A DNA stretch of 64,000 bases, taken from Dehalococcoidia bacterium. Its GTDB lineage: Bacteria > Chloroflexota > Dehalococcoidia > SHYB01. This document shows positions 38,621 to 51,704 of this stretch, piece by piece; the first letter of the stretch is position 1, and each line of letters opens with the position of its first letter. The stretch is taken from contig CBDFJU010000002.1 in assembly GCA_965248515.1 (NCBI GenBank), positions 878,847 to 942,846 on the forward strand. Direction: 5' to 3'. The notes under the pieces were generated by a model. That model was not told the origin of the DNA. It was given only the letters and a program-made list of their open reading frames with translations, and did no database searches. A program made the position numbers and the translations under genes.

Positions 38621-38755
38621 CGCTGCTCCTTTCATGAGGTACTCTACCCTCACTTCAGGAGCTCACACCACTCTCAGACTCTCGGGTTTTCTACCCCTCT
38701 CACGTGTCCCATTATCGCTGACGGTCTACATCCCGGGTGATCTTGGCGAGCGGAC

Positions 38756-38790
38756 AAAGAAAGACCCCCACGTCCACCAACGTAGGGGTC
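38756..38790 (-). terminator. Terminator-like hairpin GACCCCTACG..CGTGGGGGTC followed by UUUCUUU on the minus strand (inside repeat A)
   Basis: 9/10-bp GC-rich stem followed by a T-rich tract on the minus strand; the same structure recurs at 51446-51480. Confidence 0.4.
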
Positions 38791-38893
38791 GGGCCGCACG
38801 ATATGGTGCCAGAGTCGGTCTACTTCGATCTTACCACGACCGCCTGGACCTCGGCAACGGCCACCGCATCCTGTCGACGAAAGGAGTCGGGAC

Positions 38894-39017
38894 ATGGAAC
38901 TCGAGAGGCAGCAGCGCCTCATAACGGATCGACAACAACAAGTTCTCGCCCTGGTGGCAGAGGGGAACAGCAACAAGTCCATCGCCTCGGAGCTCGTGAT
39001 CTCCGAGAGAACGGTCA
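38894..39017 (+). pseudogene. 5' fragment of a LuxR-type HTH gene (duplicate of the 51581 gene start)
   Basis: MELERQQRLITDRQQQVLALVAEGNSNKSIASELVISERTV matches 51581..51799 and then diverges into antisense sequence of another gene. Confidence 0.6.
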
Positions 39018-39089
39018 GGCGGTCGGCCAACGGGACGTGTGCTCAGTCGGCTGGCGGGTGCTTGACGAGGGAGCTTCCAACCCCGCGGG

Positions 39090-42000
39090 AAATAATCCGG
39101 GTGGCTCATGAACTTGGCGAAGCCGGGGTCGAACGCCGCCATCTCGGCCTCTTCGAGTTCCACCATGCGTTCAGGTCGTCGTAGACAGCCCGCAGGTTCT
39201 CAGGGACCTCGCCCTCACCATGGAGAGCCTTGAACAGCCCCTCGGTCTCAGCACGGGACGCTCCGGGTTTCAAGCCCGAGCTCTTCATCAACCGTTAGCC
39301 GTTCTCGTAGTACTGCTGCGCCTCGAGGGCCCCGACGTTGCTCTTGCCCTCCCATTTGCGCAGGATGCCCGTCTCCGGGCTCTCCCCCGTGGGAAGGTCA
39401 AGGTCGTCGGGATCGATCGGTGGTCGACGTCCTTTACCGCCACGGCCACGCGCCACCTGTGGGCGTGCTCCCTCCGTTACACCGTCGGGGGCAGTGGCTT
39501 TGAACCCACTCTTGGGCGATTCCCCAAGCGTCACCTTCGGCCTGAGCGGACGGCCACCGCCACGCTCCTGAGCAATCGCGGCCTCCACGACAGGGCGTAT
39601 TCGCTCAGCCCCTGTGCTTGCAGCTGTCGTTGCCCGGTCCACAGCGATGTCGGCGGTCCGCTTGGCGATCCGGCTGCCTCCAGCGCCAGTGGGCGGGAAG
39701 ATGAGCAGGTCCGCCGCCAGCTCGGCAGGGAACCGGATGCCCGGATGCACTTGGCTCCATCGCTTGCGGGCCTCCTCAAGGCTTCGCGGGGCCTGGCCTG
39801 TGCTCAGCAACGTCAACTCACCCAACATGCTCTGGAGGGCCAGGGTGTACGCATCTGCGGCTTCGCTGACGGCCGGCGCGGGAACAAGAAGGGAAGCGCC
39901 TTCGCGAAGGCCTGGACCGAGGGGGGCAGGACGACGCTGACCTGTCACGTCTTTTGTTCGTGACCGGGCTTCCTCGAACGAGCCGATGGGGTCTGTGGCG
40001 CCCCCCGCGATCTCCCCGACCTTCTGTGCGATCGTGCTGGCCGCTCGCGAGACCGGCGACTCGATGAGGTCCACAGCCCGCGGGACGCTCATCAACATGG
40101 CCGCTTGACCCTTGAACAAATCGCGAAGGTCCGGGCTCCTGAAGCCCGAGCGCTGGTTCAAGCCGAACACGTTGTCGATGTCGCCGGCGATCTCTTCAGC
40201 GGTAGTCTTCGGCCAGCCGGCCTGCCGCAACAGCTCGACTCTGGAGCTCGTCGGGATCTGACTTAGCGCGATGGCGTCGGGGTCTCGACGGCTAGTCTCG
40301 AATCCGTCCTTGACGCGCTCGAAGTCACCGCCTGCCGACGAGAAGACCGACTGTAGCCTGCCCGACTGCCTTTGGTCCCGCCGCATCCGTTCCCCAGACG
40401 GGATGCTTTCGCGTTTGGGCAGACTGCCGAACGAGAGGGCCCCGGGGATCGCGGACCTGCGCCGCTCTCTACCAACGTCTGGCTTGGGGGCTGCTCGCCG
40501 CGGCTCGGGCGGGAGGCCCGGAAAATGGAACCTGTTCAGGTTGGTCGTCACCAGCCGGCAAGCCTCGGCCGCGGCAATCGTCGGGGGGGCTTGGCCGGGA
40601 CAGGAGGAAGCGGCCCACCTTGCCCTAGCTTCTCGAGCTCTCTAGCCTCGAACAGCGTCCTCGTGATCGCGCTCCCGATCTCCCGAAGTTGGGCCCGGTC
40701 GCTGATCGGGGCGTTGAAGTCGAGCCCCCTGTTGCGCCCAGCTTGCTCGATGACCGAGGCGATGCGTCCTGGTAGACCGCTCAGGGACCCGACAGTCTGC
40801 GGACCAACATCACCGAGTGGACCAAGCACCGCATCTTGGAAACGTTGCAGGCTGAAAGGCTCCTTTGGCTCGAAGATGCCGGCGATTGCGCCGAGCGTAT
40901 CTGCATCGAATACGTTCCCTGCGTTGAAAGAGACCAGGCGGCCATCAACCTCCGTCGTTTGGGCCCCGCCGATAAAGCCAGCGAAGAGGTCCGTTAGCTC
41001 GTCGCCGCGAGCCTCACGAGCCTGACCGATGATGGAAGCCACGTCGATGTCGGGGTTGTCCTGGGCGCTCTGGAGCGCCGCGTCAAGATCAAACGTGGGA
41101 CTGAAGGAGTGCTCAGCCGTGATGTCAGCGGCTAGCTGTTCGGCCGTCTTCCCGGCCTGGAACTCCTCGGCTTGATCCAGGAAAGAGGTTCCTTTGGAGA
41201 GAAAGTCTTCGAAGCTCTCCTTTCCGCCAGAGGCGATGAACGCATCCCTGAGCGTCGGCGCCTGAGCCGCCAGGTTCGCCGCGACGTCATCCGGAAGCCG
41301 TCCGATGAGCTGGCTGACCCGATTGTTGAACAGGCTGCCAGCCCACCCTCGCGTTCGAGCTGTAGGCGGTTATCCTTTTGCCCTTGCGTCTCAAAGGCCG
41401 CGATGGCTCCGACCGTGCTGCTCGCGTCTCCAGTGACAAGCGCCCCTGCGAATTGAGTGCCCGCCGCAGCCGTCCCGAGCATCTGCGAACCTCGTGGTTC
41501 CAACCATTCGCCAATCGGTGTGCCGGCTGGAAGCCCTTCACGGACGTAGTCGGTGACCGCCTGGTCCATGCCATCCAGCAGCGTCTCGGCAAGCCCAGAC
41601 AGCTCTCTTCGCTCGGTTTCAAGAAGGCCAGGGGCGCGACTCGCTTCTCTGAGGCTCGTGGCCCATCCGCGCATCCGACCGAAGATTTGCCCGTTGATCC
41701 ATTGCCGCTCTTCGTCCAGCTCCGTTAACGTCCTGATCTCACGGTCAAGAGACCGCTTCACGTCGGCCGCTGCGGATCCGAACTCGCCGCCCTGGAGCAG
41801 CACCGTGCGGTCCCACAGGTCATCCCATTGGTCGGCGACGTAGCGCCGTGCCGCACCGTCCCGGAATTGGAACAGGCGGTCGTGGATTACCGAGCCCTCG
41901 ACCGGCTCTTCACCTTGAAAGGCCATCGTTGCTGCCTGCCCCATGATGCTCTGTGCCTGCTGGAGGAACCAGGACTCAAAAAGCTCGGTCTCGGCTTTGG

Positions 42001-43057
42001 CGTTCCGACCGAACTCATGCCCGATGACCGCTGATACGCCTTGTTCCTCGAAGTCAAATGTGGCGTCTCGGCTCCGCTCCCCCAGGCCTGTAGCGATGCC
42101 GTCGTAGAGCGTGCGGAAGTTTTTCGAGGCGTCTTCCACCAGGACGTCGGAGACGATCGATGAGGCGCCGCCTAACAGCAGCTCTCGCAGCACAGCGGCC
42201 TGCTCTTCATCGGAACGCCCCGTGATGAACTCGAGGGCCTTTACCTCGACCTCGTCGGCCTGAGTCCTCGTGAGAAGCCCTGCCCGCACCAGGCCGTTCA
42301 CGCCGTCCTTGACCACCTCGGTTGCTGTGGGGGCGGCTTCCTCCTGGGCCTCGCTCCGAACGTTCGTCACCGTGTCGATGAACGACTGACCGAAGAGCGT
42401 TTGATCGGCCGGCGGGGTGAAGGCAAGCTCCGGAGGCAAGTCCATCGCTGCGGGTTGTCGTGAGGCGGTGAAGTCCTGGACGGCAACGCGGCGTTCTCCG
42501 GGCGACAGGTTCAACACGCGACCCCAGAACACGTCAAACACACTGTCGGCCTCCGCGTCGGTGATGAGGCCCGACTGTGGGACGCCGTTCAGGAAGTCCG
42601 CGATCGTCGCCCGAGACGCGGAGGTCGAGCCCAGCAGAGCATCCTCCTCCTGGGCGATGAGGGCCGACAGTCTCTCCGTGAGCAGCAGCTCACCATCCTC
42701 GTCGATGGTCCCGAAACGATCGAGAACCCGTTGGGCCTCGTCCTCCCCGAGACCCTGTACCCGCTGGCCCAGCGTCTCGGAGACCTTCCGGAAAAGGGGG
42801 TCTCCCCGCCGGTCCCCTCGAAAGGTTCTCGAAAGGGCGTCCCGGAACACCTGCAGGGCCTTGGGCTCTTCGTTGCTCTTTGCCGGCGCCACCGTTCTGG
42901 TGACGATCTGAGCGACGTCAGCCGCGAGCCCTTCCGGCTGCGTCCCGTTCTCCACGAACGCGAGTCGCGCTTGAGTCTCAGTGGACGTGGGCTCTCGGCC
43001 CATGAGCGCGCTGAAGAGATCCACCCACGCCGCGTGTTCTGTATCACCATTGGCCAT
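39090..43057 (-). pseudogene. Large hypothetical gene (>=1250 aa if joined) split over at least four frames
   Basis: Track ORFs 41132..43057, 40548..41042 (frame stays open upstream to ~41390), 39295..40551, 39106..39291 and 38831..39166 each contain plausible sequence that turns into P/R-rich junk near the breaks. One join (..EREGGLAA|LFNNRVSQLIG..) needs only a C insertion near 41340. Confidence 0.45.
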
Positions 43058-51115: not shown

Positions 51116-51166
51116 GACCGAATACGGGGTGGGGGACAGCCAACCTCACCCCGGAAAGGACAGCTA

Positions 51167-51376
51167 TTGGGTTACATCACGGTCAGCGAAGCCATGGACA
51201 GGACCGGTTATGGTCGGGCCTGGGTGAATCGCCTCATTCAAGACGGCCGCCTGAGAGCTCGGAGAGTAGGTCCTGTGTGGACTATCTCCGAAGCGTCCCT
51301 CGCGGCGTTCATGAAGCTCGATCGTCCGCGGGGCCGGCCACCAAAGCGCCGGCGCCAAACGAAGGATCCCGGGTGA
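51167..51376 (+). CDS. Excisionase/MerR-like HTH DNA-binding protein
   Basis: ITVSEAMDRTGYGRAWVNRLIQDGRLRARRVGPVWTISEASLAAFM; TTG 51167 or ATG 51191. Confidence 0.5.
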   Translation: MGYITVSEAMDRTGYGRAWVNRLIQDGRLRARRVGPVWTISEASLAAFMKLDRPRGRPPKRRRQTKDPG

Positions 51377-51420
51377 GCAAGGAGAAGCTGAGAAATGTGC
51401 AATTGTTGCACTTATCTCGC

Positions 51421-51440
51421 GTGTCACCAATCGGTGACAC
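51421..51440. promoter_or_regulatory. Perfect palindrome GTGTCACC-AATC-GGTGACAC just outside repeat B
   Basis: Seen directly; candidate operator or recombination-site arm. Confidence 0.3.
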
Positions 51441-51444
51441 CGGG

Positions 51445-51704
51445 CAAAGAAAGACCCCCACGTCCACCAGCGTAGGGGTCGGGCCGCACGATATGGTGCC
51501 AGAGTCGGTCTACTTCGATCTTACCACGACCGCCTGGACCTCGGCAACGGCCACCGCATGTCGACGAAAGGAGTCGGGACATGGAACTCGAGAGGCAACC
51601 ACGCCTCATAACGGATCGGCAACAACAAGTTCTCGCCCTGGTGGCAGAGGGGAACAGCAACAGAGCTATCGCCTCGGAGCTCGTGATCTCCGAGAGGACG
51701 GTCA
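51445..51704 (+). repeat. Direct repeat B (260 bp), candidate attR; supplies promoter region and 5' end of the intact LuxR-type gene
   Basis: Matches 38755-39017. Confidence 0.7.
51446..51480 (-). terminator. Second copy of the terminator-like hairpin (see 38756-38790)
   Basis: Same stem-loop and flanking A/T tract, with one substitution in the stem. Confidence 0.35.

Follow-up and report, generated by a model that had tools for sequence, protein, structure and literature searches.

A window of 64,000 nucleotides from a Dehalococcoidia bacterium (assembly GCA_965248515.1, contig CBDFJU010000002.1, positions 878,847 to 942,846) was analysed, and this work is centred on a region at about 38.7-52.0 kb of the window, which contains a tyrosine integrase gene, several replication and regulatory genes, and two long direct repeats that share the beginning of luxR, a gene coding for a small GerE/LuxR-type regulator. 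This region is likely to consist of the decayed remains of one or two integrative elements targeting tRNA-Leu(GAG), in which the repeats would correspond to two diverged copies of a module part made of a terminator and the 5' part of luxR. The original prediction described an integrative element bounded by the repeats. An element is indeed present and the repeats bracket most of it; however, the arm-type motif and the tRNA that form its right junction are located outside the right repeat.

The integrase gene (48179-49305, plus strand) codes for a protein of 375 aa once it is repaired, with Phage_int_SAM_3 and Phage_integrase domains. It shows one frame switch at about 48967, where a base is missing from a GGGCCC run, and the repaired protein aligns over its full length with homologues of 375-377 aa from Chloroflexota metagenomes. 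Genomic contexts were taken from the closest relatives whose loci could be read: P0127 (60% identity; loci L006 and L007), P0126 (59% identity; L008), P0129 (58% identity; L010), P0132 (55% identity; L192) and P0142 (54% identity; L193). The genes coding for P0127, P0126, P0129 and P0142 adjoin the 3' end of a tRNA-Leu(GAG) gene that lies on the opposite strand, and the tRNA found with P0132 is tRNA-Leu(CAG). Related to this, synteny with the window was found at the L193 locus, where a tRNA-Leu 88% identical to the one described here is followed by genes for AhpC (62% aa identity) and CoA-transferases. Thus, the family inserts at the same chromosomal tRNA in a relative. No remnant of a second integrase was found in the window.

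The second piece of evidence is a paired 11-bp arm-type motif, ATGTCGGCAGAATGTCGGCA, located at 51889-51908 (plus strand), which lies outside the right repeat and at 55 nt from the 3' end of tRNA-Leu(GAG). The tRNA gene itself (51964-52050, minus strand) has its 3' end toward the element and is preceded by a promoter-like site (52153-52124); its distance of 260 nt to the right repeat had been correctly given by the original prediction. Within the window the 9-mer of the motif occurs at 51889 and 51900 only, and no further near-copies were detected near the left end of the element. In the loci L006, L007, L010 and L192 the string ATGTCGGCAAAATGTCGGCA is found directly after the integrase stop codon, where the arrangement ATGTCGGCA-N-AATGTCGGCA is separated from the tRNA by 54-64 nt. 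The gap between motif and tRNA is 55 nt in the window, 54 nt in L006 and L007 and 64 nt in L010. The spacing in L008 differs, since int is separated from its single motif copy by a PhyH gene. PhyH genes occur on both sides of the L008 element and were considered as a parallel to the repeats of the window, but this was rejected because the two PhyH proteins are unrelated in sequence. Besides, the integrase of L193 is followed by GTTTGGCAGGGGAATGGCAGG (11153-11236) instead of the canonical motif, which could represent two arm sites that have diverged but keep the 11-bp spacing.

These data suggest that the 3' end of tRNA-Leu(GAG) is the attachment site. The right junction (attR) would then consist of two copies of AAATGTCGGCA at 51889-51908, the spacer of 55 nt and tRNA-Leu. 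The original prediction had excluded this tRNA as attachment site, which is contradicted by the close relatives of the integrase that adjoin tRNA-Leu(GAG) and by the motif located 55 nt from its 3' end. Since the motif is situated between luxR and tRNA-Leu, both luxR and the right repeat are inside the element.

Searches in metagenome contigs revealed the 20-mer motif in at least 120 loci. The paired repeat, (A)AATGTCGGCA twice, is present in L006, L007, L010, L011, L013-L132 and L192, in DNA of 31-71% G+C. Among the matches listed, the motif starts between -55 and +71 nt from the projected end of the integrase (median 17) in all the loci with a detectable integrase C-terminus (74/74), and a tRNA gene is found at 400 nt or less downstream of the motif in 70 of 125 loci, mostly at 16-81 nt. 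Many tRNA species are represented at the loci listed, usually with the 3' end toward the motif, and many of the remaining listed loci contain 17-45 nt of the 3' half of a tRNA followed by unrelated DNA, which is the free attP form. In L057 and L117 a second copy of the motif is located about 110 nt past the tRNA part, on the other arm. These two loci (~2249-2490 in L057 and ~5823-6060 in L117) have nearly the same P' arm with different cores, the 3' half of a tRNA versus the 5' part of a tRNA-Ser, and the comparison suggests that core specificity may be exchanged modularly on conserved arms. In a viral contig (L012, 1760-1860), about seven tandem 11-bp units akin to AAATGTCGGCA were observed, with no integrase or tRNA in the 3-kb stretch. 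A search for the motif string in the searchable literature returned unrelated primer matches or nothing.

From its position and recurrence, the motif is an arm-type feature, shared by a very large family of integrases that target tRNA genes. As a paired sequence of 20 nt after int it marks the P arm of this family, and together with the adjoining tRNA (or tRNA half) it provides a simple rule to distinguish integrated from free forms, and to read the tRNA specificity, in metagenomes.

The direct repeats were confirmed in their main features. The left copy (38751-39019, plus strand) contains a terminator hairpin, a 5' untranslated region and codons 1-42 of luxR (38894-39019), and is a truncated stub; the right copy (51441-51706, plus strand) belongs to an intact module formed by the Xis-like gene, the terminator and luxR. 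The similarity of about 96% that had been given for them agrees with the alignment, in which 254 of 269 columns are identical (12 substitutions and one 3-bp indel; 95.5% without the indel). No other direct repeat longer than 60 nt joins the two repeat regions, so a pair of ~265 bp is far beyond chance. It was also correctly stated that each repeat has a terminator-like hairpin and a luxR start, and that only the right copy gives a complete gene of 72 aa (51581-51799, plus strand). The right luxR open reading frame (ORF) matches Pfam GerE (2.1e-18) at profile positions 3-57 of 57, that is, a complete helix-turn-helix (HTH) domain. The left ORF, with 42 codons in common with the right one, covers positions 3-35 only. 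Homologues of LuxR with 71-126 aa are common in Chloroflexota, and a homologue with 78% identity (P0002) was detected; a search of genome contigs with LuxR returned distant GerE proteins of unrelated phyla only. The hairpin, which is of the intrinsic-terminator type on the minus strand in both copies, is followed by TTTCTTTG and spans 51453-51480 in the right copy (minus strand), where it would stop minus-strand read-through coming from the tRNA-Leu promoter.

The differences between the copies are informative about their origin. In the 42 common codons of luxR there are 10 substitutions affecting 7 codons, three of them synonymous and four with replacements: the conservative K28R, S29A and R42K, and also Q7P. 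Both variants fit the consensus of the family. In the 143 nt upstream of luxR only 2 positions differ, apart from the 3-bp indel. The two luxR 5' parts look like two once-functional alleles of related modules, and this synonymous or conservative pattern disfavours both a recent duplication in place and random decay. Other short sequences are associated with the right copy. Three TTGTAG(G/T) repeats, 9 bp apart, lie directly 3' of the luxR stop codon (51802-51828, plus strand) and are candidate protein-binding sites, either for an operator function or for a recombination directionality factor (RDF). The palindromes GTGCAATTGTTGCAC and GTGTCACCAATCGGTGACAC, between the Xis-like stop codon and the right repeat (51398-51440), are missing from the left copy and could likewise act as operator or RDF-binding sites. 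The string TGGTGCC...ACCTCGGCA, inside the repeat, was considered as a decayed tRNA-Leu relic or att core and rejected, since its local alignment to the tRNA is no better than that of shuffled or random genomic sequence.

A different history was proposed in the original prediction, according to which an element of 12.7 kb integrated site-specifically in the 5' region of a chromosomal luxR gene, so that the repeats would be attL and attR, with a replacement copy of 265 bp, and tRNA-Leu a mere neighbour. The gene content on which it is based was supported by profile matches: the repeats do flank a frameshifted tyrosine integrase gene, an Xis-like gene, an AlpA-like gene, a primase-polymerase (PrimPol) gene and hypothetical genes. 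The fact that the complete gene comes from the right copy only would also be in line with it, and the differences are distributed on both sides of an identical stretch of 88 nt, as hybrid att sites would show. Moreover, long repeats that restore a gene are found with the prophages e14 and 21 at icd. On the other hand, the closest integrases whose loci could be read (P0127, P0126, P0129 and P0142) use tRNA-Leu(GAG), which lies only 260 nt away in the window. In the family, the identity between att sites extends over 17-45 nt of tRNA sequence, whereas here it would involve 265 nt of a protein-coding gene. If the excised circle ended at the repeats, it would not include the arm motif, which is outside the right repeat, yet the motif follows the integrase in the 74 listed family loci mentioned above. 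The idea that the element entered luxR and rebuilt it is also contradicted by the location of this gene between int and the arm motif, inside the element.

The boundaries of the left copy are of special relevance to this question. On its inner side, the left repeat is in contact with the remains of a large gene. The minus-strand ORF at 38834-39166 was compared with 1.8 billion representative proteins, and its first 50 residues (39166-39017, minus strand, to the right of the repeat) match an internal block of proteins of 1400-2600 aa, with E values down to 1.7e-5. The conserved block reads ..DMLAFDPxF...HPDYFPRGW.. in these proteins, which have no Pfam family. As determined by tblastn, the homology spans 39387-39017 only, stopping at 39017, and crosses an in-frame stop codon (39295-39297) and a frameshift near 39170. 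At least 800 conserved C-terminal residues of the homologues were not found anywhere in the window. The junction 39017/18 cuts this conserved gene mid-domain and carries the microhomology CGGTC(A/G)G. Since the left repeat ends exactly where the large gene is cut, the junction reads as an illegitimate one, that is, as a deletion scar and not as a native end of the element. The remains of the gene would occupy 39017-43057 (minus strand), with ORFs of 641, 164 and 418 aa and a tail; the four ORFs are taken as one gene, for which homology was demonstrated at 39387-39017 only. According to the original prediction, the left copy continues into an unrelated gene at the 3' end of the latter. Another gene is indeed adjacent, but it is a truncated pseudogene of the opposite strand, and the contact is at its middle. 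The family to which this gene belongs (P0284-P0291) comprises proteins of 1400-2600 aa in which a C-terminal region of about 850 aa is conserved, and it has no match in Pfam or PHROG.

On its outer side, the left repeat is close to an insertion sequence (IS) of the IS3 family (36772-38730), with orfA (38366-38653) and orfB (37226-38215) on the minus strand, matches to HTH_Tnp_1, rve and rve_3, and the ends TGTAGACC.../...GGTCTACA. The IS end at 38730 is only 20 nt from the repeat. In this short interval the 10-nt string TCCCGGGTGA (38731-38740, plus strand) is the same as that found in the stop-codon region of the Xis-like gene (51367-51376), upstream of the right repeat. An equal match was given by 74 of 20000 random genomic 20-mers (p ~0.004). 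This suggests that the homology of the repeats once extended further left, with an indel of 54 nt, until the IS interrupted it. No homology was found between the element and the left flank of the IS. Related to this IS, its first 411 bp are repeated in perfect inverted orientation (36772-37182 versus 38319-38730), either through a genuine rearrangement or as an artefact of the assembly. In addition, the right copy of orfA is out of frame owing to one extra base at 38372.

Neither boundary of the left repeat would therefore be a natural limit of homology between attP and attB, because the inner one is a cut in the middle of a domain and the outer one shows the IS and the trace of Xis. For an insertion into luxR, the supposed left end of the element would begin mid-domain in a pseudogene, and to the left of the left repeat there would be, first, a trace of the Xis gene that belongs to the element and then an IS. 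It is hardly credible, then, that the element was integrated in luxR. The repeats do not behave as att sites, given that the left copy is bounded by the end of an IS and by a deletion scar, and that the att blocks of the family consist of 17-45 nt of tRNA.

If tRNA-Leu is the site of integration, a second junction (attL) would be represented by a copy of its 3' half. No direct-orientation copy of this part (17-45 nt) is present in the 64-kb window, including the 52 kb to the left of the tRNA. Three candidates were rejected: an 18-mer with 3 mismatches at 23642-23659, which lies within an ORF and in the opposite orientation; AAATGGTGCCG at 27876, inside an ORF of 707 aa; and, in one of the relatives, GTGCCGAGGA at L010:881, also inside an ORF. 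The distal junction is interpreted as lost by deletion or as lying outside the window.

From these observations we infer a tandem origin and the following order of events. Two related elements would have accreted in tandem at tRNA-Leu. A single deletion would then have joined codon 42 of the distal luxR to the middle of the large gene of the proximal element, taking away the 3' end of the distal luxR, its arm motif, the internal att site and the left end of the proximal element. No attL would be left in the proximal element because this deletion removed both the internal att site and that left end. Finally, insertion of the IS and an adjacent deletion would have taken the rest of the distal element. 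The block of 2.6 kb that contains small ORFs, a tRNA(GAU), the Xis-like gene, the terminator and luxR would be cargo of the element, located between int and the motif. Mobility by site-specific recombination has probably been lost, given the frameshift in the integrase, the absence of attL, and the stop codon, frameshift and truncation of the large gene. Nevertheless, RecA-dependent recombination between the repeats could cause the loss of 12.7 kb and leave one hybrid luxR, in a process that is homologous and not an att excision.

Several points weigh against this interpretation. The motif of the window is located 2587 nt from the end of the integrase and is an outlier with respect to the 74 family loci listed. 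The 2.6 kb between int and motif may be either inserted cargo, as the PhyH gene in L008, or the product of a rearrangement, and the proposed model gives no mechanism for it. Besides, none of the family loci listed has luxR between int and the motif, and a second module formed by Xis, terminator and luxR was not found in them (a LuxR match in L027 was rejected as a parallel, as it lies on the chromosomal side of the tRNA). The homology of 10 nt to the left of the repeat was noticed post hoc and its p value makes it only moderately significant. Nothing element-like was found to the left of the IS, and therefore an extra deletion is needed to lose the distal element. The frameshifts may be assembly errors and not signs of decay, which is less likely for the in-frame stop codon.

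A single element at tRNA-Leu could also account for the region if the segment with Xis, terminator and luxR had been copied by means that are not site-specific, without a tandem pair of complete elements. The means could be a segmental duplication, a homology-facilitated illegitimate recombination with a related strain, or a RecA-mediated insertion of a defective relative. The structure of the left copy is of interest in this respect, as the junction 39017/18 is illegitimate, with CGGTC(A/G)G, and the other side is homologous, as is typical when homologous joining on one side is combined with illegitimate joining. The presence of one integrase and one motif in the window is also consistent with a single element, and the Xis homologue of L193 occupies the position that the left copy has in the window, upstream of the replication genes. 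However, a divergence of about 5% with synonymous or conservative changes makes a recent in-place duplication unlikely, so a diverged donor is required. The missing attL needs a further deletion, and the 2.6 kb between int and motif are explained no better than by the accretion of two elements. This explanation, which differs from the tandem origin in history only, is considered unlikely.

It could also be thought that two strain variants of one locus were chained in the assembly, giving rise to a false near-duplicate. The source contig, of 968,904 bp, was assembled from a metagenome (NCBI/ENA data), the identity of about 95% between the copies is what strain variants would show, the nearby IS shows an odd perfect inverted duplication of 411 bp, and there are single-base indels in the integrase and in orfA of the IS. 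However, chaining of strains joins homologous points, whereas the junction 39017/18 joins codon 42 of luxR to the antisense strand of an unrelated gene. An artefact is consequently most improbable, because this junction is non-homologous. The split integrase was already present in the deposited annotation (P0125).

Regarding the remaining genes of the element, a group of small hypothetical genes on the minus strand (43058-43330, 43311-43544, 43549-43737 and 43744-44310) showed no convincing family. They are next to the gene for a replication protein of the primase-polymerase/DUF3987 type (44307-46823, minus strand), with matches to NrS1-1_pol-like_HBD (1.6e-14) and DUF3987 (1.3e-91). The best homologue of this protein outside the source contig is only 38% identical and no match was found in viral contigs; hence there is no sister element in the collections searched. 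An HTH_17 DNA-binding protein of the AlpA/excisionase type, recognised by profile match, is encoded at 46762-47061 (minus strand). A gene of 349 aa and no assigned function (47127-48176, plus strand) is directly upstream of the integrase, and by positional analogy it may correspond to an unannotated gene of 246-315 aa that occupies the same position in the relatives.

The block of 2.58 kb from the integrase stop codon to the arm motif (49306-51888, plus strand) contains small ORFs (49365-49583, 50320-50886 and 50895-51115, plus strand), a Ser-type tRNA, the Xis-like gene, the right repeat, luxR and the TTGTAG repeats. The Xis-like gene (51167-51376, plus strand) codes for an excisionase/HTH protein that belongs to PHROG excisionase families. 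A homologue with 69% identity is found inside the element of L193, 6 kb upstream of its int, and from this match the gene is judged to be borne by the element.

The Ser-type tRNA of this block (50167-50258, plus strand) is a type II tRNA with a long variable arm (47.7 bits with the Rfam tRNA model) and a GAU anticodon (Ile). Its body is Ser-like, with the acceptor GGAGAGG, the pairs G1-C72, G2-C71 and A3-U70, G73 and a variable-arm stem of 6 bp, and the anticodon is one base away from GCU. A promoter-like site (TTGATA-17-TATATT, 50078-50106) is located 60 nt upstream. Seryl-tRNA synthetase does not read the anticodon. For this reason, a functional tRNA(GAU), transcribed from this promoter, would insert serine at the isoleucine codons AUC and AUU, and would thus be a mistranslating tRNA carried by an element; we regard this as doubtful. 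In a scan of viral contigs, about 20 tRNAs with a long variable arm and a GAU anticodon were detected, several of them in phage tRNA arrays (Rfam, 50-62 bits). One of these about 20 tRNAs, in L168, has a perfect acceptor (GGAGCGU), G73 and the same anticodon stem-loop, with a score below the Rfam gathering score for tRNA. If it were true, the mistranslating tRNA could be used, for example, as a toxin, defence or counter-defence device. Alternatively, tRNA(GAU) may be a mutated or mis-sequenced tRNA-Ser(GCU).

As for the surroundings, an accessory region with lower G+C (54-62%) was observed to the left of the element (20844-36471). It contains genes for an N6_N4 DNA methylase, an N6_Mtase protein flanked by two HTH proteins of about 420 aa, and a protein of 1194 aa with RHS-repeat and Laminin_G_3 domains, which is followed by a protein of 565 aa of no assigned family. 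The DNA to the right of tRNA-Leu has 63-68% G+C. Since G+C is low and accessory genes are found on the left, the accessory region bordered by tRNA-Leu is composite and extends over about 30 kb. Further to the right, at 53011-54976, there are two tandem paralogous genes of about 330-350 aa that share a stretch of 300 nt with 77% DNA identity, and their products seem to be enoyl-CoA hydratase-like on sequence criteria.

The practical consequence for annotation is that the region would be described as a defective integrative element linked to tRNA-Leu(GAG), with luxR as a gene of the element, and that the repeats of 265 bp are not usable as att sites. As a whole, it is an ordinary kind of genomic island. 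Tandem accretion and decay are known in genomic islands at tRNA hot spots, and the likeness includes the accessory DNA of lower G+C (about 30 kb) on the element side, the IS, the pseudogenes and the remnants of a second module, as well as the presence of a different family member at the same tRNA-Leu(GAG) locus in L193. It differs from those islands in that the tandem stage is deduced and the second module is only a stub of 290 bp.

Elements with heterobivalent integrases of the lambda type are well known at the 3' ends of tRNA genes, such as ICEBs1 at trnS-leu2, P4-like islands at leuX and mycobacteriophage L5 at tRNA-Gly. As in these systems, the integrase described here combines an N-terminal extension with SAM-like and catalytic domains, the element adjoins an intact tRNA 3' end, the arm-type sites of the family are repeated beside int and a small HTH gene similar to excisionases is present. 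In contrast to them, the motif with two copies of AAATGTCGGCA is 2.6 kb away from int in the window, attL is lost and the integrase is frameshifted. Satellites similar to P4 and to phage-inducible chromosomal islands (PICI) are organised as int, an AlpA-type HTH gene and a primase/helicase module. The element described here shows a similar order (PrimPol with DUF3987, HTH_17, a small gene and int) and a similar size, of about 13 kb, and the same order is found in L008, L010 and L193 with DUF3854, D5_N or AAA_25 replication proteins. No capsid, packaging or interference family was recognised in the element by scans with Pfam and PHROGs, and its replication protein is at most 38% identical to its relatives.

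Finally, the prophages e14 and 21 integrate in icd and carry a diverged replacement end of this gene. The region studied here resembles them in having long and slightly diverged direct repeats, one of which completes an intact gene. However, the boundaries of its repeats are the end of an IS and a deletion scar, the integrase family and the motif point to the tRNA, and luxR is located inside the element.

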